DNA of 64,000 bases from Escherichia coli (GTDB lineage Bacteria; Pseudomonadota; Gammaproteobacteria; Enterobacterales; Enterobacteriaceae), in the NCBI RefSeq assembly GCF_041886205.1, contig NZ_CP169029.1. The stretch is one strand, 5' to 3'. The notes beneath the pieces are model-generated. The model ran no database searches and was not told where the DNA came from. It saw only the letters and a program-made list of their open reading frames with translations. Within the stretch, counting starts at the first letter, position 1, and each line of letters begins with the position of its first letter. A program made the translations under genes and the position numbers. Of this stretch, positions 856-57,994 are shown one piece after another.

Positions 856-2085
856 ACATGTATTCCCGGTGAAAAAAGACAAAACCCCGCGCACCGGAAA
901 GGTGGCGGGGGATTCACGGAGATAATATCTGTCTGAAATTGTTTTGAATCGATGGGATTGTTGCGTATTAACATGAAGGAGATCAGGACTTATCCGTTAC
1001 TGGGTGATCTCCTTCCATGAAAATACGCCGTTATTGTTAAACAGCAGGCTGATTTCTCCGTAAAGGGGAAAATATTTATCGGCTGTATGATTATCAGGTG
1101 TGTCTGTGTTTACTGCTGTGAGTATTTTTTAGTGTATTGTGGGGGAGATGTCAGTGGGAGATATTAAATTTACGTTTATAATTATCTTACTTCTTCTGTG
1201 TGTTTTTTATAAGAGTGCACACGTAATGATATCTGTTGATACCATGTGGTTAAGTGTTTCCCTTCCTGGTCATGCGTAATGATTAAATGCTTTTGTGACA
1301 CCATTCTTCCGGTCTGAATATTTATCCCGTTCTTTTTTATTTGTGCAGTGATACTGTCGGAAGAGAATTCAGTAATGTGAGGTGTCCTGGTCAGGATAAT
1401 ATCTGCTGAGATATTATTAGTTGAGTGTGTTTTACTGAGCAAAAGCTGGCTTTTAATTCCTGTACTGAAACACTGTCGCTCGTCCGGGGTTAACTGAAAC
1501 TGGATGATGATGTAAAATGAAGGCTGTTTTTGTGTTTGTCGAAGAAGTGTTATTTTAATCCATTCTCATCATTGGCTGGCGATTATACAGAAGTATTTGA
1601 AGAAAAAATGGTGCATTTTATCTGTGTCAGCAGGGAAGAAGTATTTTATTGATGTATCAGTATTAAATGGTTTTTGTTATTTATAAAAATGTCATCCTGT
1701 CCATAAAATATTGTACTCAGCATTCAGTGCAGGAACTGTAGTCTTCTTTATTTTATTCTTCTTCAGGAGGGGGGGTGATTCCTGAAGGCGTTATTCCCGG
1801 TGTTCTGTTTATGATTCTTCCCGGCAGGAAACCGGTATCTGCAATACCCGGGATGATGCTTTTTGTTCGTACGTGGTTGTGTAAAATTTGAATAGTGGAT
1901 GTGCTCCGAAGGGAAGGAGGGGACACACAGATTCATTTTGTCTTTCTTCAGCAGCAAAATACACCGTGGTTATTATTTAACCATTAAATCAACAAAAAAT
2001 TTTACCTCATATTGATTTGACTGCTATTTTTGCTATTAATAGCCAGAATTGCAGTGCTTTTATATCTGTGTATAGTGAGGTTACT

Positions 2086-3570
2086 ATGTCATTCGGTCAG
2101 CCTTGTGATGAGTTTCCCCTGAGTTCGCTGCCTCCACTCATTCGTGATGCCGTTATTGAAGCTCAGCAAATTACGCAGGCTCCCCTTGGGCTTGTGGCAG
2201 CGTCTGCCCTGGGCGCTGTTTCACTTGTCTGCCAGAATCTGATTGATGTCTGCAGACTGAATACACTGCGGGGGCCGGTCTCTCTTTTTTTCCTGACGCT
2301 TGCCGAGTCCGGAGAACGAAAAACCGCAGTGGACAAATTATTAATGAAGCCCCTGTACCAGCAGGAGATGCAGTTATATTCCAGATACAAAAGTGAACTG
2401 GCTGTCTGGAAAAACAAGGAAGAGCTTTTAAAGGCTCAGAAAAAAGCATTGTTGTCAAAACTGAATAAAGAACTCCGCAAAGGCGCGGATGAGTCAGAAA
2501 CCCTCAGACAACTGGAAGTACTTCAGAAAAACAGTGCGGAAGAACCTGTGAGGTATAAATTCATTTTTAATGATGCCACGACTGCGGCAATTAAGAATCA
2601 GCTTTGTGGTAAATGGCGTTCAGTGGGTATTATGTCAGATGAAGCCGGTATTATATTTGATGGATATACCCTGTCTGAGTTGCCTTTTATTAACAAAATG
2701 TGGGATGGCTCTGTATTGTCTGTGGACAGAAAGAATGAACCCGAACAGATGATTGAAAATGCCAGAATGACGTTATCCCTCATGGTGCAACCCGGTCTTT
2801 TTGACCGATATATGGAGCGAAAAGGTTCTGTTGCCAGGGACAGTGGTTTTCTTGCCCGTTGTCTTATCAGTAAACCTGCAACCACGCAGGGGAAACGCTT
2901 TATTAACGGAGCTGTGATTCCGGGAGGATCATTAACGGCATTTCATGAACGATTAATGGAACTGGCCAGAGGCAGTATTGAAAAATCCAGTGAGGATGAA
3001 CGGTATTGTCTGCATTTTTCGCCTGAAGCGCAAAAAATATTTATTGAGCACTATAATGTTCTGGAGCAGGATTTATCCCCTTCCGGACCCTTAAGCCCGT
3101 TTCGGGGACATGTTTCAAAAAAAACAGAAAACATTGCAAGAATTGCAGCGTTATTTCAGTATTTCAGCTATGGTGAAGGGAAAATCTCTGCCGATATCAT
3201 GACGTCTGCTGTCGTAATAAGTTCGTGGTACACAGATGAATATAAAAAATTATTTGCGTTACCTGATGAATCTGAACTGCAGCAGAAGGACGCCGAGGAG
3301 CTGTTCGACTGGCTCATTGAGGAGTGCCGCGGAGAATGCCCACCCCGTGTCAGGAAAAATTATATTCTCCAGTGTGGCCCGGGTCGGTTCAGAAACAGGA
3401 AAAAACTGAACGCATTGCTGAACATTCTTGAATCTCAGTTCAGGCTTTCTGTCGTGCCGGAAGGAAAAACCATGTATGTTCTGCTTCCCCAGATAGCCAG
3501 TTTAAAGTTGTCTGATGTCTCTGGTATTTTTACCTCGGGTTATCACTACAATAAGCTGAGAGCGAAGTAA
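2086..3570 (+). CDS. large island cargo protein, YfjI/DUF3987-like (about 494 aa)
   Basis: ORF 2017..3570; ATG at 2086 is preceded by a GAGG ribosome-binding site. Family call is from recollection of CP4-57-type islands, not from a search. Confidence 0.5.
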   Translation: MSFGQPCDEFPLSSLPPLIRDAVIEAQQITQAPLGLVAASALGAVSLVCQNLIDVCRLNTLRGPVSLFFLTLAESGERKTAVDKLLMKPLYQQEMQLYSRYKSELAVWKNKEELLKAQKKALLSKLNKELRKGADESETLRQLEVLQKNSAEEPVRYKFIFNDATTAAIKNQLCGKWRSVGIMSDEAGIIFDGYTLSELPFINKMWDGSVLSVDRKNEPEQMIENARMTLSLMVQPGLFDRYMERKGSVARDSGFLARCLISKPATTQGKRFINGAVIPGGSLTAFHERLMELARGSIEKSSEDERYCLHFSPEAQKIFIEHYNVLEQDLSPSGPLSPFRGHVSKKTENIARIAALFQYFSYGEGKISADIMTSAVVISSWYTDEYKKLFALPDESELQQKDAEELFDWLIEECRGECPPRVRKNYILQCGPGRFRNRKKLNALLNILESQFRLSVVPEGKTMYVLLPQIASLKLSDVSGIFTSGYHYNKLRAK

Positions 3571-3891
3571 CCGGTGAGCAGTTTTTCTCCATTATGCTTC
3601 AGACTTAGATGATTGATTATTATGGGGATTTCATCACCGATATTCAGATGTATGAATATCGGTGATGAACTAAAGCTCAGGAGCTGCGTGGTGGTGATGA
3701 ATCAACAGGCATATAACTGATACCCGCCGGTCAGAAGTTCCAGCCTGCGACTTTCCTGTCTGCGTGCCCGCAGTCCGGCGTTCAGGTGCAGCGTGTGACA
3801 GAACGCACGGAGAGCGAAACGGCAGGCAGACAGGCCGTTCAGTCAGCCCTGGCACCCTGCCCGGATACCAGCTTCCCTGAAACAACTGGCA

Positions 3892-4500
3892 TCAGGTGCG
3901 CTTATCGTCAACCGTTGTGCGGTATGCCAGGAGCACGTACTGATCCATCAGATCCGTCAGTGCTGCGCTCTGCTTCTGACGGTTGATGATCCATTCCTCC
4001 AGCTCTTTTTCTGATTTCCGTTTCAGATTCTCCGTCCAGTCGTCAAGGCAGTTTCCGGTCATTAAATCAAGCCAGCAAAGCCAGACCAGTTTGAGGCGCA
4101 ACTCCGTGCCACCAAACTGACGGAAGAGGCTGATCAGTTTATTTGCCAGCGAACGCTGCCTCAGACGTTCACATTCAGACAGGAGAATGCCTTCCAGCAT
4201 CGGATGATGAACCAGCAGATGTTCACTGGTGCATAAATTCACTATCAGATCATCATCCAGGGGCGGCGTGGTCCGTTTGTCCGGACCATAAATCAGCCGG
4301 TGCAGACTCTGGGGTACGATGGCAATCTCCGGTTTTTCACCATTGAATGACACCCACCCGGGCGTCAGATTATGGAAGTAGTAGATATTCGGATGACACA
4401 CGCCCCAGGATACGGCGTGCCGGGTGAAGCCGGTCAGCCATTTCTGGTAGCTTTCGTGGAGCAGCTCGTAACGGGTCTGATACTGTGGTTTCATTTTCAT
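3892..4500 (-). CDS. hypothetical island protein (about 203 aa)
   Basis: ORF 3892..4641; internal ATG at 4500 (MKMKPQYQTRYELL) with a GAGGA RBS avoids overlap with alpA. Confidence 0.45.
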   Translation of the reverse strand: MKMKPQYQTRYELLHESYQKWLTGFTRHAVSWGVCHPNIYYFHNLTPGWVSFNGEKPEIAIVPQSLHRLIYGPDKRTTPPLDDDLIVNLCTSEHLLVHHPMLEGILLSECERLRQRSLANKLISLFRQFGGTELRLKLVWLCWLDLMTGNCLDDWTENLKRKSEKELEEWIINRQKQSAALTDLMDQYVLLAYRTTVDDKRT

Positions 4501-4580
4501 ATTCCTCACGGGGGATAACAGGCAGCAGAACGCCGCCGGCAGGCCGGAGACTGCGTCTGTTGCAGATGAACGGTTAAGAA

Positions 4581-4787
4581 TTACGGACGGGACTGTGCAA
4601 TACGCGCCTGCAGCCAGGCTTCCACTTCGCTTTTCAGCCATCGGGAGCTGCGGCCCATTTTGATGGGCGCAGGAAAGTCACCATCCTTGATGAGTTTGTA
4701 AAACCACTTATCGGTCAGGCCGGTCAGTTGAGTGATAAATGCCATGTCGACCATCTGGTCATCCATCAGTGAAACTGGGGTGATCAT
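4581..4787 (-). CDS. alpA: AlpA-family island/prophage transcriptional regulator (small HTH protein)
   Basis: 68-aa product MITPVSLMDDQMVDMAFITQLTGLTDKWFYKLIKDGDFPAPIKMGRSSRWLKSEVEAWL from the internal ATG at 4787 of ORF 4581..4859. Confidence 0.8.
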   Translation of the reverse strand: MITPVSLMDDQMVDMAFITQLTGLTDKWFYKLIKDGDFPAPIKMGRSSRWLKSEVEAWLQARIAQSRP

Positions 4788-50331: not shown

Positions 50332-51903
50332 ATGGACACCTCACTTGCTCATGAGAACGCCCGCCTGCGGGCACTGTTGCAGACGCAACAGGACACCATC
50401 CGCCAGATGGCTGAATACAACCGCCTGCTCTCACAGCGGGTGGCGGCTTATGCTTCCGAAATCAACCGGCTGAAGGCGCTGGTTGCGAAACTGCAACGTA
50501 TGCAGTTCGGTAAAAGCTCAGAAAAACTTCGTGCAAAAACCGAACGGCAGATACAGGAAGCACAGGAGCGAATCAGCGCACTTCAGGAAGAAATGGCGGA
50601 AACGCTGGGTGAGCAATATGACCCGGTACTGCCATCCGCCCTGCGCCAGTCTTCAGCCCGTAAACCGTTACCGGCCTCACTTCCCCGTGAAACCCGGGTT
50701 ATCCGGCCGGAAGAGGAATGCTGTCCTGCCTGTGGTGGTGAACTCAGTTCTCTGGGATGTGATGTGTCAGAGCAACTGGAGCTTATCAGCAGCGCCTTTA
50801 AGGTTATCGAAACACAACGTCCGAAACAGGCCTGTTGCCGGTGCGACCATATCGTGCAGGCACCAGTACCTTCAAAACCCATTGCACGCAGTTATGCCGG
50901 AGCGGGGCTTCTGGCCCATGTTGTCACCGGGAAATATGCAGACCATCTGCCGTTATACCGCCAGTCAGAAATATACCGTCGTCAGGGAGTGGAGCTGAGC
51001 CGTGCCACACTGGGGCGCTGGACAGGTGCTGTTGCTGAACTGCTGGAGCCGCTGTATGACGTCCTGCGCCAGTATGTGCTGATGCCCGGTAAAGTCCATG
51101 CTGATGATATCCCCGTCCCGGTCCAGGAGCCGGGCAGCGGTAAAACCCGGACAGCCCGGCTGTGGGTCTACGTCCGTGATGACCGTAACGCCGGTTCACA
51201 GATGCCCCCGGCGGTCTGGTTCGCGTACAGTCCGGACCGGAAAGGTATCCATCCACAAAATCACCTGGCCGGTTACAGCGGTGTGCTTCAGGCCGATGCT
51301 TACGGTGGTTACCGGGCGTTATACGAATCCGGCAGAATAACGGAAGCCGCGTGTATGGCTCATGCCCGGAGAAAAATCCACGATGTGCATGCAAGAGCGT
51401 CCACCTACATCACCACGGAAGCCCTGCAGCGTATCGGTGAACTGTATGCCATCGAGGCAGAGGTCCGGGGCTGTTCAGCAGAACAGCGTCTGGCGGCAAG
51501 AAAAGCCAGAGCCGCGCCACTGATGCAGTCACTGTATGACTGGATACAGCAACAGATGAAAACACTGTCGCGTCACTCAGATACGGCAAAAGCGTTCGCA
51601 TACCTGCTGAAACAGTGGGATGCACTGAACGTGTACTGCAGTAATGGCTGGGTGGAAATCGACAACAACATCGCAGAGAACGCCTTACGGGGAGTGGCCG
51701 TAGGCCGGAAAAACTGGATGTTCGCGGGTTCCGACAGCGGTGGTGAACATGCGGCGGTGTTGTACTCGCTGATCGGCACATGCCGTCTGAACAATGTGGA
51801 GCCAGAAAAGTGGCTGCGTTACGTCATTGAACATATCCAGGACTGGCCGGCAAACCGGGTACGCGATCTGTTGCCCTGGAAAGTTGATCTGAGCTCTCAG
51901 TAA
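50332..51903 (+). CDS. tnpC: IS66-family TnpC transposase (523 aa)
   Basis: Full length with CPACGGEL motif and conserved C-terminal ...[28 protein letters not shown]... Confidence 0.85.
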
Positions 51904-51906
51904 ATA

Positions 51907-53367
51907 TCAATACGGTTCTGACGAGTCGCTTACTTTTGTGCTGTCGCCAAAATCACTAATCCCTCTCACAATAAGCGCTGGAACTCCCTGCTTTTCGCAG
52001 GCATCAAATACCCCATAGGCTTCCATTTCGGCAACACAGGCTTTGTCATGAAGCGACCTGAAACGTTCTAGTAAAGCAGGATCGCGGATAAGAAGCTCTC
52101 CTGATGCGATAGTGGCTGAAGAAACAATTATCCCAGCAGCTACGTCTCCAGCCTGCGAATTTTCAGGCATTTCGAGTCCTATAGCCTGTGCCCGTTCGCC
52201 AAGACGTGCGGATAGTGACGTTGTTGCAAGGTAAGTATTGAGGTTTTGTTTAGTTGGCATATGGAGACATAATATTTCAGGTCGAGGAGCAAACTTCCCA
52301 CCTTCTAATGCGGCTGCACTTTCATAATAAATGACACGCTCAGAAATAATGACTTCACCTAGCACCATTTTTTCTCTCAACCCCGCCGCAATCCCCATCA
52401 TCAAGACTTTTTGGGGTTTGAATTCCGACAACAACATGGTAGTAATAGCTGAAGCATTCACATTTCCAGCACTAGCGAAAGACGCCACTATGCCAGTTAC
52501 TGGGCCATCTGAGCGTTGTATGGATGTGGACCAGAAATGTATTCCATTTGATGTGAGCCGCGGAGATTCATCATCAGCTATGCCAAATACTTTCTTGGCT
52601 GCAGCAAGTTCAACTGGTAGAGCTGTCAAAATCAACACATTTGGAGTATGCAGCAACTGTTGTGCAGCCCATTCAGCTTTAAGCAATTCAACTGCGATTT
52701 CTGAAAGTCGTTCCAGTCCATAGTAAGGTTCCTGTAACGATAAAGTGTCGAGCTGATTTTTTACGGCTTCACCGGTGCAAGGGAACATAGACAGCGGCTC
52801 TGCATAAAAACGTGCATGTAGGCCTAAAGCACCTTTTCCGTCATCGCAAATTCCCCCAAGCTCCAAGTCAAACGGTAATATGGGGTGGTTGGCTTTACGC
52901 ATTTTACTCGCACGATCGGAAACGCCTTTTCCTCCACCTAATGCAATCATGGCTGTGGCAGCATCAACCTGCTCGCTTCCAATATTTCCTCCAGTAATGA
53001 GATCATCATCTAGATAGCTGACATCAGCAAATCTAGCTGCCTGAAGTTTACGAATAAGCATCCGATTCTCTTCAGACATTTTCTCCCGCATTGCAGAACG
53101 CGACGTGACGATCTTGAGTTGGTGGGCTGGCGTATAATTCTCCATTAAATCTACAGCTTCTTTTACTATCGTCCAGTCGAAGGTCAGGAGATCCCCATTT
53201 TCATTAACAGGTTCTCCTGCCAAATAGACAACTAGTCCCACATTTGCATCAAGGATGCTCTTCGTCAATGCTCGAACGAAACTATGTGCTCGATCAATAT
53301 AAAGTTTTTCTGTATTTTTGGATATACTTCCAGCGATCAGAACATACTCATTATTAGTATTTGTCAT
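51907..53367 (-). CDS. two-domain defence-effector candidate: N-terminal Rossmann-like putative ligand-sensing domain (SLOG-like?) fused to a C-terminal nucleoside-phosphorylase (PNP/MTA-nucleosidase) domain; the 3' end is replaced by IS66 terminal sequence
   Basis: ORF 51907..53382, ATG at 53367. C-terminal half ...KVLMMGIAAGL...GEVIISERVIYYES...CVAEMEAYGVFDACEKQGVPALIVRGISDFGDSTK is phosphorylase-like; N-terminal half has ...YVLIAGSIS...VGLVVYLAG...IALGGGKGV... The last 8 codons (VSDSSEPY) are read from the reverse complement of the IS66-5 terminal repeat. Confidence 0.6.
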   Translation of the reverse strand: MTNTNNEYVLIAGSISKNTEKLYIDRAHSFVRALTKSILDANVGLVVYLAGEPVNENGDLLTFDWTIVKEAVDLMENYTPAHQLKIVTSRSAMREKMSEENRMLIRKLQAARFADVSYLDDDLITGGNIGSEQVDAATAMIALGGGKGVSDRASKMRKANHPILPFDLELGGICDDGKGALGLHARFYAEPLSMFPCTGEAVKNQLDTLSLQEPYYGLERLSEIAVELLKAEWAAQQLLHTPNVLILTALPVELAAAKKVFGIADDESPRLTSNGIHFWSTSIQRSDGPVTGIVASFASAGNVNASAITTMLLSEFKPQKVLMMGIAAGLREKMVLGEVIISERVIYYESAAALEGGKFAPRPEILCLHMPTKQNLNTYLATTSLSARLGERAQAIGLEMPENSQAGDVAAGIIVSSATIASGELLIRDPALLERFRSLHDKACVAEMEAYGVFDACEKQGVPALIVRGISDFGDSTKVSDSSEPY

Positions 53368-53396
53368 CACAATTCTTCCCAAAGGAGTATTACTTG

Positions 53397-54296
53397 TTAC
53401 TGTTTAAGTAAGGCATAGATTTCATCCTTGTTTTTTAATGCTAACTGTAATGCTTCCGGCGCCTGATGTGACTGAGTCTCTGTAAGATTTAACTGGAAAA
53501 GAAGGTAGTGCAGCAAAGCTTGTCGGCATTCCAGATGGATTTCTCCGTCGATCATTGCATAATCTCTCTCAATAAGGTTTCGTTGAGCAAGGCATAGTCC
53601 AGGATGCGCTATAAGAATAATTTTGATGAATGTATTCCACGCTAAATCACCATTAGCCCTCTCTTCATCGGGTCCGGCGTTTTGTGCCTGCACTATTCGC
53701 GACAATAAAAAGTCCCTATATTCACCACGTTTATGACACCATGCTCTTGTGTGCCAGCGATAACCATCATGGACTAATGAATGAGGAGTCAAGGTTCGTT
53801 TACTGCCTTGAGGGTCACTCATGGATTGATAAATAACATGAACAGCCTCATTTTCACGTATAGCTCGTAATATTTGACTTACGACATCAGTGTCCAGTCT
53901 ACGTAACAGTCGTGGAACCGCTGCAACGGGTGAGCGCCAGCCCAGAAAGCTTCCAAAATGAATTTCAGGTTGTATTGCCACTCGCAGCAAATCATTCAGA
54001 TAACATTCCAGAGAGCTGGTCATATAAACTGGCTGAAACAATTTCGTTGAACGGTAAACTCGGGAACTCATATCGTACTCAAGATTATCGGGGGCTAACT
54101 TAGTATATTCACTAAGATCCAGCGAAGCTTGAGGTACTGATATGCCGAAAAAATCAGTGAGGCTGCTACGATTGATTTGCCCATCCCATCGAAGTCGATA
54201 ATCAATAAATTCAAGCCGACGCTCTTGGCCCCATCTCGCACCTTGCCGTCCTTTTTGGCTGTCTTGCTTATCCCCTTCTCTAAAGTTATCTGGCAT
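53397..54296 (-). CDS. WYL-domain transcriptional regulator (CapW/BrxR-like)
   Basis: 299 aa; WYL-type core ...DGYRWHTRAWCHKRGEYRDFLLSRIV...; stop is 29 nt upstream of the phosphorylase-gene start; divergent from the CBASS operon. Confidence 0.65.
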   Translation of the reverse strand: MPDNFREGDKQDSQKGRQGARWGQERRLEFIDYRLRWDGQINRSSLTDFFGISVPQASLDLSEYTKLAPDNLEYDMSSRVYRSTKLFQPVYMTSSLECYLNDLLRVAIQPEIHFGSFLGWRSPVAAVPRLLRRLDTDVVSQILRAIRENEAVHVIYQSMSDPQGSKRTLTPHSLVHDGYRWHTRAWCHKRGEYRDFLLSRIVQAQNAGPDEERANGDLAWNTFIKIILIAHPGLCLAQRNLIERDYAMIDGEIHLECRQALLHYLLFQLNLTETQSHQAPEALQLALKNKDEIYALLKQ

Positions 54297-54395
54297 CTTA
54301 GTTCCCGGTAGCGTATAAAAAATATCTCAATATAAAAAGTAGACGCAGAATAAAAACTGAACGTATAATAATGCTACGCTATAGGGCGGTAAGGT

Positions 54396-54433
54396 GCAAC
54401 CATCACCTCAGTCACTTCTGAGGTGATGGTTGC
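54396..54433. promoter_or_regulatory. perfect 16-bp inverted repeat with 6-bp spacer (GCAACCATCACCTCAG-TCACTT-CTGAGGTGATGGTTGC); candidate operator in the divergent promoter region
   Basis: Lies between the WYL gene start (54296) and the nucleotidyltransferase start (54466), 32 bp upstream of the latter. Confidence 0.5.
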
Positions 54434-54465
54434 AGTTTTCATGAATGATCTTCGGAAGGATGTGA

Positions 54466-55410
54466 ATGCCACTCACTAATACTCAGATCCGATACTACGA
54501 CAGCAATGTACTGCGTTTGCCTAAGGATAAGCGTGAAACCTACAATGCCCAAGTAGATCGGCTTATTACAGCGTTACGTAAAAAACTGAAAGATCAGGAT
54601 AAAATAACAATAAAACGTGTCGTTAAAGCTGGTTCGTTTGCTAAACACACTATTCTACGCAAAACCTCAGACAGTCAGGTCGATGTGGATGTTGTGTTTT
54701 ACGTTAGTGGAGAGAAAGTTGCTGAGGAAACCTTCGCAAGCCTGAGCGAAAAAATTTACGAAGCCTTACTTAAAATGTATCCCAACAAAGCTGTAGAAGA
54801 TTTCGAGATTCAACGTAAGGCTGCTACTGTTTCTTTTGTCGGGACTGGATTAGATGTTGATATTGTTCCCGTCATCGAAAATCCGGACAAAGAAGGCTAT
54901 GGATGGCAGTTTGACCGTATCGATGGTTCGAAGACAGAGACTTGTGCTCCTTGCCAGATCAAATTTGTGAAAGATCGCAAAGACCAAGACCCGGACTTTC
55001 GTACTTTAGTACGCTTAGCTAAACGTTGGCGTACCAACATGGAATGCCCACTTAAGTCATTTCATATAGAACTAATCATGGCTCATGTACTAGAAGTCAA
55101 TGGAAAAGATGGTTCGTTGGAGAAGCGATTTCGGGATTTTCTACTGTACATTGCTGAATCAGGATTAAAAGAAGTTATCACCTTCCCTGAAAATAGCACT
55201 ATACCAGCATTTTCCCATCCAGTTGTCATACTGGATCCTGTTTGCGATACGAACAACGTTACCAGCCGTATTACCGAGGATGAGCGAAAAGAGATCGTCC
55301 GGATTGCTGAGGAAAGTTGGGCGACGGCAAATTTTGCGTCGGTAGAAGGAGACTATGATATCTGGAAGGAGCTGTTTGGTCGTTCATTTAAAGTGGAGGA
55401 TACAGCATGA
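54466..55410 (+). CDS. cGAS/DncV-like nucleotidyltransferase (CBASS CD-NTase), 314 aa
   Basis: GGAAGGA RBS; nucleotidyltransferase signature ...VKAGSFAKHTILRKTSDSQVDVDVVFYV... (GS motif and acidic DVD); first gene of a four-to-five-gene operon. Confidence 0.7.
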   Translation: MPLTNTQIRYYDSNVLRLPKDKRETYNAQVDRLITALRKKLKDQDKITIKRVVKAGSFAKHTILRKTSDSQVDVDVVFYVSGEKVAEETFASLSEKIYEALLKMYPNKAVEDFEIQRKAATVSFVGTGLDVDIVPVIENPDKEGYGWQFDRIDGSKTETCAPCQIKFVKDRKDQDPDFRTLVRLAKRWRTNMECPLKSFHIELIMAHVLEVNGKDGSLEKRFRDFLLYIAESGLKEVITFPENSTIPAFSHPVVILDPVCDTNNVTSRITEDERKEIVRIAEESWATANFASVEGDYDIWKELFGRSFKVEDTA

Positions 55411-55895
55411 GTTACTCCTCAACTGAAACATCGACTTATACCACAACAGACGTTGAAGCAGTCATGCGACGCATCACAGCTGACTTAGTGATGATTGCCG
55501 CCAGTACCGGTGCGATAACTGAATCAAAAGCACGTGAGTATGCTCACGATATAGAACTCTTAGCAAAAAATGGATATCTGGATTACGTCGATGTGACCCT
55601 TATAAGCAATGGCGTTGAACAGAAAGCAACCCGGTTTCATGTGAATGAGTCCGGAGAATTGGCAAATGACAGACCTGGAGACGCTCGTTGGCCGAGAATT
55701 CAGGGGGCTTATCTGCGGATTGTTGTGAACAACCGGAGTACCTACGATCAGGCTGCGAGGCAAAAGCTTTCAGGTAAGATGAAAATATCGTGGTCGCCAT
55801 GTAGTGATGACATCAGTCATTCAGGTTTGACCCAAAGTGGTGGTCGTGAATATTCCAGCAATGGTTATGGTATGCAACGTAAGGATTACAATTAA
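55407..55895 (+). CDS. small CBASS accessory protein, HORMA-like by position (162 aa)
   Basis: ATGA overlap with the nucleotidyltransferase gene; size and position between CD-NTase and AAA+ ATPase match Cap7-type HORMA proteins; no motif can be verified by eye. Confidence 0.45.
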   Translation: MSYSSTETSTYTTTDVEAVMRRITADLVMIAASTGAITESKAREYAHDIELLAKNGYLDYVDVTLISNGVEQKATRFHVNESGELANDRPGDARWPRIQGAYLRIVVNNRSTYDQAARQKLSGKMKISWSPCSDDISHSGLTQSGGREYSSNGYGMQRKDYN

Positions 55896-56791
55896 TGAGC
55901 AAGAGTAGTGTTTTCGACTCAGTGATTGATTTACCGCAGCGCGAACTGACAGAGCGAGAGAACATTTTACTTGGCTTTGAAAGTCGTTATGAGAGTGTCC
56001 ACAACCAACTCAACCTGCTGCTTAACCAAGGGCAACTCCTTGACTGGAGCAAGAAGTACCATAAGAGCGTTTTACCGCTCTGCAAGCTCGTTGCTGAGCA
56101 GTATCCGCTTGTTATTTTTCATGGTGATGTAGGAACAGGTAAAACAGCAACTGCTGAGTGCATCGCGAATCGTCTTGTCCGCGAGTCTCGCACTGAAGAT
56201 TCGGCCCTCTTTAAGCTCAGCAATCGGGTCCGTGGTTCCGGAAAAGTGGGGGAGATGGGGACGCTACTAACTCAGGCATGGGCAGAAGTGTGCGAGGCTG
56301 CGGGTAAAAATCGCAGAGCAATACTGATTATTGATGAAGGGGATTCAATTGCAGCTTCCCGTTCTCAAAACCACAGCCATCATGAAGATAAAGTAGCAGT
56401 AAATACTTTAATTCAAGGAGTGGATGAGCTACGAAAATTTGGCGGCCGGGTTGTGGTAATTTTATGTACTAATAGACTATCCGTCCTTGACCCTGCACTT
56501 CGTAGGCGAGCAGCGATTGTCGAAGAATTTACTCGCCCCGGGCTCACAGAACGAGAATCGCTTTTTCGCATGGATCTTGGAGGGATGGGATTGTCAGATA
56601 GTCAATATCGTCAACTAGCGGTGGCAACTGGTGAGAAAGAAAATCTGCCAGCATGGACATACTCTGATATCCGTACGCGCCTCTATCCCGCAGCAATGTC
56701 AAGAGCGTTTCCTGAACGGGCTTTAAGTTTTAATGATTTGATGGAATTATTGAAAATAATGAGGCCTTCCCCCGTCATGGGAGATATATAA
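55895..56791 (+). CDS. AAA+ ATPase, TRIP13/Pch2-like (Cap6-like), 298 aa
   Basis: Walker A GDVGTGKTATAECIANRL, Walker B ILIIDEGD; start overlaps the preceding stop. Confidence 0.6.
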   Translation: MSKSSVFDSVIDLPQRELTERENILLGFESRYESVHNQLNLLLNQGQLLDWSKKYHKSVLPLCKLVAEQYPLVIFHGDVGTGKTATAECIANRLVRESRTEDSALFKLSNRVRGSGKVGEMGTLLTQAWAEVCEAAGKNRRAILIIDEGDSIAASRSQNHSHHEDKVAVNTLIQGVDELRKFGGRVVVILCTNRLSVLDPALRRRAAIVEEFTRPGLTERESLFRMDLGGMGLSDSQYRQLAVATGEKENLPAWTYSDIRTRLYPAAMSRAFPERALSFNDLMELLKIMRPSPVMGDI

Positions 56792-56887
56792 GGCCCCATT
56801 TCTTAATCAACTGATATACTATAAAAATCAACTCCAATTCCGGTACATTTGTTGATTTACGGTGCACTTCTTGCAAGCAGGAACTAT

Positions 56888-57451
56888 ATGAGAACTGATA
56901 AAGAAATTTTCGTTTCAGTTGATGTGGAAACATCAGGCCCTATTCCGGGGAAATACAGTATGTTATCGATAGGTGCTTGTGTGGCATTTGAACCATCAAA
57001 GCAATTTTCATGTTACCTTAAACCGATATCTGAAGATTTTATCCCTGCGGCTATGGAAGTGACTGGGTTATCGCTGGAGAAGTTGCACGTCGATGGTTTG
57101 GATCCTGTTGATGCAATGGTTCAATTTAAAGAATGGATTAATTCGGTCGTAAAGGAAGATGAGACTGTAGTTTTTGTTGGTTTCAATGCTTCATTTGACT
57201 GGAGCTTTATTAATTATTATTTCCATGTATATTTAGGTGATAATCCTTTTGGCATCGCAGCACTCGATATAAAATCAATGTATTTTGGCGTTTCTCACGC
57301 CTCATGGAGATTAACACGTTCTAGTGAAATAGCGAAAGTTGTCAAACCTGAGACATATGGTGATCATGATGCATTACATGATGCCCGATATCAGGCTGAA
57401 CTATTCCGGTTGATCGATAAATTGAGCGAGAAGAAAAAATTAGATCGATGA
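56888..57451 (+). CDS. DEDD-family 3'-5' exonuclease (DnaQ-like; CBASS Cap18-like accessory)
   Basis: Exo motifs [10 protein letters not shown] (DxE) and ...[10 protein letters not shown]...; ATG at 56888 with GCAGGA RBS (ORF track start 56849 is a TTG). Confidence 0.6.
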
Positions 57452-57538
57452 GTTGCGCAAATAATCATATGGAATTTTCAAAGATTAATTTACTGGAAGT
57501 ACAGTGAATTACCTTATGACAAGAGTTCTGGTGGATAT

Positions 57539-57994
57539 ATGAATGACGAATTTAGCTGTGCAAGTGAGCATATCTGGAAATATTTCGAATTGCATGCACA
57601 ACAAAGAATGACTGTTTTCAATTTTTACATTGCGATAACAGGACTTCTTGCTGCTGGCATTGGGGTTACTCTCCAACAAGGAGGGAAGTATGTATTATTT
57701 ACTTCACTTATGGGGGTGTTTGTAGCATTTATTTCATTTATTTTCTGGAAATTGGATCAGCGAGTGTCGATTTTAATAAAAAATGCTGAAATTGCTCTAC
57801 AAGATCTTGAATGTCAATTTTCCAATGAAAAGCTGAGGATAATCACTAAAGATAATAGCAGTCATTTGCTAAACTTAGGCATTAGTTCTTCTTGGACTTA
57901 TGGAAAATGCTTCCGCATTTCATTTGTTATAGTAGGTCTTACTGGGATATTACTTGCGATTACACCTTTTCTGATGAAAGTCTCGACTTCTTAA
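57539..57994 (+). CDS. small multi-pass membrane protein (151 aa); candidate membrane-disrupting effector
   Basis: Three hydrophobic helices (VFNFYIAITGLLAAGIGVTL, YVLFTSLMGVFVAFISFIFW, ISFVIVGLTGILLAITPFL); last gene of the operon; its stop directly abuts an IS2-like end. Confidence 0.5.
   Translation: MNDEFSCASEHIWKYFELHAQQRMTVFNFYIAITGLLAAGIGVTLQQGGKYVLFTSLMGVFVAFISFIFWKLDQRVSILIKNAEIALQDLECQFSNEKLRIITKDNSSHLLNLGISSSWTYGKCFRISFVIVGLTGILLAITPFLMKVSTS

Follow-up and report, generated by a model that had tools for sequence, protein, structure and literature searches.

The capW-cdnC locus and its intergenic palindrome

The window, i.e., the whole stretch of 64,000 nucleotides of Escherichia coli DNA analyzed here, harbored a type III CBASS locus 99.4% identical to that of E. 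coli upec-117/EcPF14. PADLOC profiles matched a WYL protein (capW), a CD-NTase (6.9e-124), HORMA and TRIP13 proteins, an exonuclease effector and a PNP-type effector (cap17, placed beyond capW), in agreement with the WYL/CBASS context given by the initial annotation. The 2-kb capW-cdnC segment was present in 5 of 5426 complete E. coli genomes, being 100% identical in ZYB39 and 99.4% identical in EcPF14. The features of the region were as follows.

53397..54296, minus strand: capW, WYL-domain repressor of 299 aa, transcribed divergently from cdnC
54340..54369, plus strand: predicted sigma-70 promoter of the cdnC operon (-35 TAGACG at 54340-54345, 18-nt spacer, -10 TATAAT at 54364-54369)
54351..54380, no strand assigned: equivalent of the published CapW operator probe (one mismatch, position 54361), containing the imperfect palindrome CGTATA-N7-TACG that spans the -10 box
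54395..54411, plus strand: left palindrome arm, TGCAACCATCACCTCAG, forming the 5' side of the leader hairpin
54412..54417, plus strand: loop TCACTT, exact reverse complement of the AAGTGA found in L113/L114 and L094 (TCATTT in EcPF14)
54418..54434, plus strand: right arm, CTGAGGTGATGGTTGCA, exact complement of the left arm
54435..54442, plus strand: U-rich tail GTTTTCAT, 3' of the stem and forming with it a borderline terminator-like site (d-score about -4)
54454..54468, plus strand: Shine-Dalgarno (SD) region GGAAGGA (54454-54460) and cdnC start codon (54466-54468)
54466..57994, plus strand: operon 3' of the hairpin, cdnC-cap7-cap6-cap18-cap19
54466-55410, plus strand: cdnC, CD-NTase by PADLOC profile
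55407-55895, plus strand: cap7, HORMA
55895-56791, plus strand: cap6, TRIP13
56849-57451, plus strand: ORF of cap18, DEDDh exonuclease
57539-57994, plus strand: cap19, membrane protein

The cap17 gene of the window (51907-53382) was truncated by an IS66 element (tnpC 50332-51903, terminal repeat at about 51904-51940) inserted in its 3' end, and matched residues 1-478 of the 505-aa EcPF14 protein, the last 27 amino acids being replaced by 8. It was intact in ZYB39 and EcPF14. Published work on this CBASS found cap17 to be required for defence, and the copy of the system in the window may be disabled through this truncation.

The palindrome encompassed 40 bp in all, with two arms of 17 nt, 100% complementary in the inverted-repeat search, separated by the 6-nt spacer TCACTT. 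The perfect 16-bp inverted repeat first reported at 54396-54433 was real, and one further T-A pair extended its arms to 17 bp. It was located inside the capW-cdnC gap (54297-54465), which had the announced length of 169 bp, and ended 31 nt before the cdnC ATG at 54466 (32 by the earlier coordinates). About 4e-5 perfect stems of at least 17 bp with a 3-12 nt loop would be expected in 64 kb (analytic estimate), and the longest stems in 20 first-order Markov resamples of the window reached 8-11 bp, so that chance does not explain the palindrome. As RNA, the 111-nt region folded at -42.9 kcal/mol (z = -4.2 against shuffles) and the hairpin on its own at -31.6 kcal/mol. A dispersed repeat (REP or IS end) was rejected, as the palindrome sequence was found at one locus only, in 5 of the 5426 complete E. 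coli genomes. An RNase III site, CsrA/RsmA GGA sites and cruciform extrusion near the operator were also considered as possibilities.

A second perfect palindrome of the same geometry (17-bp arms and 6-nt loop, TTCATCACCGATATTCA GATGTA TGAATATCGGTGATGAA) was present at 3630-3669, between a yfjI-family ORF (2017-3570, plus strand) and a convergent ORF (3892-4641, minus strand), with no U-run. Of 5426 E. coli genomes, 1178 contained the 170-bp segment at some level of identity, and 1163 had it at 99% or more, which places this palindrome in a common island. A bidirectional terminator or a further product of template switching would be possible explanations.

Position of the CapW operator and the predicted cdnC promoter

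The sole good promoter match was TAGACG-18-TATAAT, an assignment that agrees with published work (PMC9122588). From this predicted promoter, transcription would start at about 54376-54377, and the hairpin would occupy about +19 to +58 of the cdnC transcript. Looking in the upec-117 promoter for palindromes placed like the S. maltophilia CapW site, Blankenchip et al. (2022, NAR, PMC9122588) identified a 21-bp imperfect palindrome over the -10 box, which purified Ec CapW bound in fluorescence polarisation with a Kd of 1.5 uM; the probes assayed with Ec CapW were the one for the -10 site (#3) and a heterologous control. Binding at the -10 site was of modest affinity (Kd 1.5-3 uM; PMC9122588; PMC11662680). 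The 30-mer operator probe of the 2024 follow-up (PMC11662680), TAAAAACTGATCGTATAATAATGCTACGCT, corresponds to positions ending 14 bp before the 40-bp palindrome starts. At position 54361, just outside the CGTATA half-site, the window displayed A where the published probe has T (CTGAACG vs CTGATCG), and A was also found in the metagenome allele L113.

The initial annotation regarded the large palindrome as a strong candidate for the CapW operator. This reading was not borne out, since published binding places CapW on the -10 palindrome, whose CGTATA-N7-TACG motif was kept in every orthologous capW-cdnC locus collected (from reference genomes, contigs encoding close CapW homologues and a metagenome scan) and was lacking in the 40-mer. 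A weight matrix derived from 29 operator variants other than the window's own gave one strong match in the whole window (29.4 bits at 54359-54381), while the best score within 54385-54445 was -26.1 bits; the palindrome is thus unlike a CapW site. The known class of operators covers about 19-24 bp over the -10 box, and the palindrome started 25 nt past the last base of TATAAT.

Conservation in homologous loci, proposed at the outset as a check of the operator reading, told against it as well: the perfect dyad was confined to one E. coli lineage, and its arms were asymmetric in all non-E. coli orthologues and in L094-L097, whose CapW is 98% identical. A primary or auxiliary operator, where one or two CapW dimers would block elongation or help to repress the divergent promoters, could be defended from the location of the palindrome between capW and cdnC, from CapW being a palindrome-binding dimer, and from the modest affinity at the -10 site, which makes an additional site conceivable. 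However, 40 bp is twice the ~20 bp spanned by the wHTH pair of a CapW dimer, the spacing of the apical repeat shrank from 6 to 3 nt in Pectobacterium, a change intolerable for a duplex operator, and the perfect symmetry is accounted for by a mutational mechanism (see below). We consider a role as operator very unlikely.

Other regularities were observed around the promoter. Region 54312-54369 consisted of tandem units of ~18-20 bp of the form CGTATA/ATATAAAAA..TAGAC, three of them in E. coli, Budvicia, Hafnia and one Klebsiella/Citrobacter group, and two in enterobacterial loci with intergenic regions of 150-155 nt. Most loci retained a third CGTATA half-site close to the start of capW (54312-54317), which reads CATATA in several enterobacterial loci; it could function in the divergent capW promoter or in the binding of CapW. 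The distance from the operator TACG to the GCAA of the leader hairpin (54378-54399) was fixed at 17 nt (18 in two loci) over variable intervening sequence, across cdnC-clade loci of Enterobacterales, Pseudomonas, Acinetobacter, Stenotrophomonas and Burkholderia. As a general feature of CapW promoters, TACG-N17-GCAA was rejected, being confined to the cdnC clade and missing from most CapW-like loci that control other systems.

Leader hairpins in enterobacterial and Pseudomonas-type loci

The fallback reading of the initial annotation, a stable 5'-UTR hairpin, was supported. The element lies downstream of the known operator and of the predicted promoter, and is homologous to a conserved leader hairpin with positional counterparts in all enterobacterial orthologues. 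Imperfect hairpins of the same size and place were found in 12 other enterobacterial loci (Budvicia, Hafnia, two Klebsiella types, Citrobacter, Serratia, Pectobacterium and several metagenome loci), with at least 10 distinct leader sequences. They shared a basal stem (U)GCAAC/GUUGC(A), an asymmetric internal loop with CAUCA opposite AAGACU, an apical stem CCUCAG/CUGAGG and a hexaloop that was mostly AAGAUA, for a hairpin energy of -11 to -16 kcal/mol, and most displayed GUUUUU 3' of the stem. The left arm TGCAACCATCACCTCAG was the same in E. coli, Budvicia, Hafnia and the metagenome locus L092; its last base differed in L003, and Klebsiella L082 and Citrobacter L084 had C for the first T. RNAfold gave alternative leader folds for L094, L092, L002, L082 and L093.

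Identity between enteric lineages was ~50% at four-fold sites of cdnC, compared with 82% in the hairpin, 77% in the linker to the start codon and 71% in the stretch preceding the hairpin, and the unpaired bases of the internal loop and of the loop were also conserved. Conservation beyond neutral expectation was clear in these alignments and points to strong purifying selection on the enteric leader. The 12 shared pairs were formed in 94% of cells against 27-45% when partners were slid. Covariation was not above that of shuffles, and a double change was seen at a single pair, U-A replacing C-G in Klebsiella L090/L120, so that selection on RNA structure could not be separated from sequence conservation in this set. 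No Rfam 15 family matched window positions 53000-56000 or six orthologous loci, even at E up to 1-5, a search of the literature yielded no relevant account of a CBASS leader, UTR or riboswitch, and no cdnC relatives were found in viral contigs.

A candidate 6-codon upstream ORF (54445-54468, ATG ATC TTC GGA AGG ATG TGA), with a stop immediately before the cdnC start (TGA-ATG), was shared by the window, L094 and Budvicia; Klebsiella, Hafnia and others lacked the stop, and the frame entered cdnC. It had no obvious SD and is probably incidental. Small upstream ORFs of the leader were not conserved over the aligned leader sequences, as read from the alignments.

Pseudomonas-type loci displayed longer cdnC leaders of ~200 nt (L004-L010, L024, L101-L110, L116, L118, L121 and L123; e.g., L005 2740-2938, minus strand). 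Alignment of 19 leaders gave a five-helix consensus in which 92% of cells were paired, against 35-55% when slid, with 43 double-change cells against 7-16, and none of 500 shuffles reached its covariation score. Helix 3 paired GCC..CUC with the SD region. No Rfam family matched these leaders, which are candidates for a new cis-regulatory RNA preceding CapW-associated type III CBASS. A long-range GCAA/UUGC closing stem was rejected: as read from the alignment, its outer pair covaried in 2 leaders and was disrupted in about 5, and the stem was not part of the RNAalifold structure.

The ancestral enteric leader aligned to the 3' domain of the Pseudomonas structure (pairwise z = 4-5.8). A covariance model of this domain matched the enteric leaders at the right coordinates but weakly (8.6-12 bits, E 0.6-6), and on EcPF14 it matched the left and right arms with the anti-SD and SD strands, respectively. 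The left arm also resembled the anti-SD strand GCCAUCUCAUCC of Pseudomonas-type leaders. These alignments suggest that the left arm may be homologous to the anti-SD strand and that the ancestral AAGACUG may belong to a further conserved element. Duplex energies between the enteric left arm and the cdnC SD were no better than those of shuffled arms, and the predicted accessibility of the SD varied between lineages without pattern.

A broader model is possible, though doubtful. CapW-controlled type III CBASS of the cdnC clade would carry a second, post-transcriptional layer of control in the form of a conserved and hitherto undescribed structured leader RNA, with a ~200-nt five-helix leader in Pseudomonas-type loci and a reduced form of ~90 nt in Enterobacterales, where the anti-SD strand would gate translation of the cyclase; the upec-117 palindrome would then be a template-switch mutant with this switch locked or destroyed. 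As the complementarity test between anti-SD and SD was negative in the enteric leaders, a translational effect there is retained as a hypothesis founded on homology with Pseudomonas leaders.

Template switching and possible consequences of the perfect stem

The perfect form was limited to a few closely related alleles of the single E. coli lineage to which the laboratory model upec-117/EcPF14 belongs. Its nearest imperfect relative, L094-L097 (CapW 98%, DNA 96.8% identical), carried a hairpin that in L094 reads TGCAACCATCACCTCAG-AAGTGA-CTGAGGAAGACTGTTGCA. The window differed from L094 at 10 positions within 17 bp (54412-54428), where ~0.5 would be expected at the background divergence of 3.2%; by our own Poisson arithmetic, the probability of such clustering is roughly 1e-9. 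Through these changes the right arm became the exact complement of the left arm, with TGATGG (54424-54429) standing in place of the ancestral, conserved AAGACTG, and the loop became the exact reverse complement of AAGTGA. A simulated intra-strand switch on L094 yielded exactly the L113/L114 metagenome allele (perfect arms, loop AAGTGA), and a simulated inter-strand switch yielded exactly the window sequence.

The loop appeared to have flipped at least twice, because L113 was identical to the window across the intergenic region save for loop orientation, while EcPF14 combined ancestral flanking SNPs with the inverted loop TCATTT. Polymerase template switching is documented to homogenise the arms of inverted repeats and to invert their spacers reversibly (PMC8604942; also PMC7202029, PMC5941160, PMC8794818). 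A prior imperfect repeat, clustered complementary change and reversible inversion of the spacer were all found here; at the level of sequence, these comparisons showed a palindrome perfected by template switching, i.e., by quasipalindrome mutation. As template switching accounts for both arms and loop, the perfection of the palindrome is a mutational signature and not evidence for a selected protein-binding dyad. Two more leader changes accompanied the perfect alleles, C>G at 54443 and G>A at 54457 in the SD, which reads GGAGGG with G at this position in the imperfect-hairpin relative.

The palindrome was the sole terminator-like site of the region in a consensus scan (17 pairs, 9 of them G-C, tail GTTTTCATGA), and the perfect stem raised the d'Aubenton-Carafa-type score from about -45 in ancestral forms (range -42 to -71) to -3.9, with a tail score of 2.0. 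The same crude parse gave +17 to +30 for reference terminators, but -25 for rrnB T1. An element acting mainly as an intrinsic terminator or leader attenuator, ending most transcripts from the cdnC promoter at the U-run and keeping CBASS low even after release of CapW, would agree with this gain in score and with the GUUUUU that follows the stem in most enteric relatives. Yet the score remained below zero, and the stem was followed by GUUUUCAU, with four consecutive U at most. The ancestral scores imply that termination was not the conserved function, and Pseudomonas orthologues had no U-run at the position of the hairpin end. GFP reporters with the same intergenic region were strongly expressed once CapW was disabled (PMC9122588; PMC11662680), so any attenuation must be partial. 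Termination as the main role is accordingly quite unlikely.

The perfected stem could also be selectively neutral, a mutational scar without effect of its own that replaced part of an older functional leader. Template switching fully accounts for the sequence, the perfect form was restricted to few alleles, and the system that carries it still defends against phage in published work. On the other hand, the seven overwritten bases were conserved across genera with saturated synonymous sites, the stability of the stem was doubled beside the ribosome-binding site, and the co-occurring changes at 54443 and at SD position 54457 hint at altered or compensated expression. A neutral scar is unlikely, though it deserves some weight.

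The reading that we favor, with a probability of about 0.62, is a leader stem-loop of the cdnC-cap7-cap6-cap18-cap19 mRNA, perfected by template switching, with the CapW operator elsewhere. The ancestor would have been the imperfect hairpin of enterobacterial orthologues, in a constrained leader. A template switch during replication in one E. coli lineage would have copied the left arm onto the right arm, overwriting the conserved internal-loop bases AAGACUG and producing the perfect 17-bp stem (-31.6 kcal/mol), and later switches would have inverted the loop to and fro. CapW would act about 15 bp upstream of the palindrome, at the -10 box, and the hairpin would be transcribed within the cdnC mRNA. 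With the left arm held in the 17-bp helix and seven conserved bases erased, alternative ancestral folds would be lost; the leader may be locked in one fold, where the left arm, as putative homologue of the anti-SD strand, would no longer be free to pair elsewhere. In addition, the strengthened stem and the UUUU after it may terminate some transcripts early, a weak attenuation.

The kind of object is ordinary, a leader stem-loop arising from quasipalindrome mutation. A tempting mis-annotation is corrected, the most conspicuous palindrome of a repressor-controlled promoter region not being the operator, and the leader of a widely used model CBASS provides a clean natural case of quasipalindrome template switching in which the arms were homogenised and the loop flipped repeatedly. 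The upec-117 allele, on which all published experiments were done, has the perfect form; the leader of the published constructs is thus a derived one, departing from the ancestral state at seven constrained bases, which could change the amount of CdnC made after CapW release. The conserved cdnC leaders, clearly structured in Pseudomonas with the ribosome-binding site paired, make possible regulation of CBASS at the RNA level directly testable.

Compared with known systems, the palindrome shares with the CapW operator of the upec-117 CBASS the locus (99.4% identity), the intergenic region and the inverted-repeat form, but that operator is a 21-bp imperfect palindrome at about 54359-54381, whereas the 40-bp palindrome has no motif in common with it and is perfect in this lineage only. 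Like intrinsic terminators and leader attenuators, it combines a stem-loop containing G+C with a U-run behind it, within a 5' leader; it differs by an unusually long stem of 17 bp, a short and interrupted U-run, a borderline score, ancestral versions that did not score as terminators and substantial read-through in reporters. It recalls leader RNAs that sequester the SD, such as riboswitch expression platforms and RNA thermometers, in that a helix of Pseudomonas-type leaders covers the SD and the left arm is the putative sequence homologue of one of its strands. Unlike in those RNAs, the homologous strand of the window is held in a local 17-bp helix instead of being paired with the SD, and there is no known ligand, signal or Rfam family. 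Quasipalindrome template-switch mutations, reportedly described by Ripley in 1982, offer the closest likeness in origin: an imperfect repeat was made perfect by clustered change complementary to the other arm, and the spacer occurs in both orientations. The difference is that the event took place naturally here, in the leader of a model anti-phage operon, and overwrote conserved rather than neutral bases.
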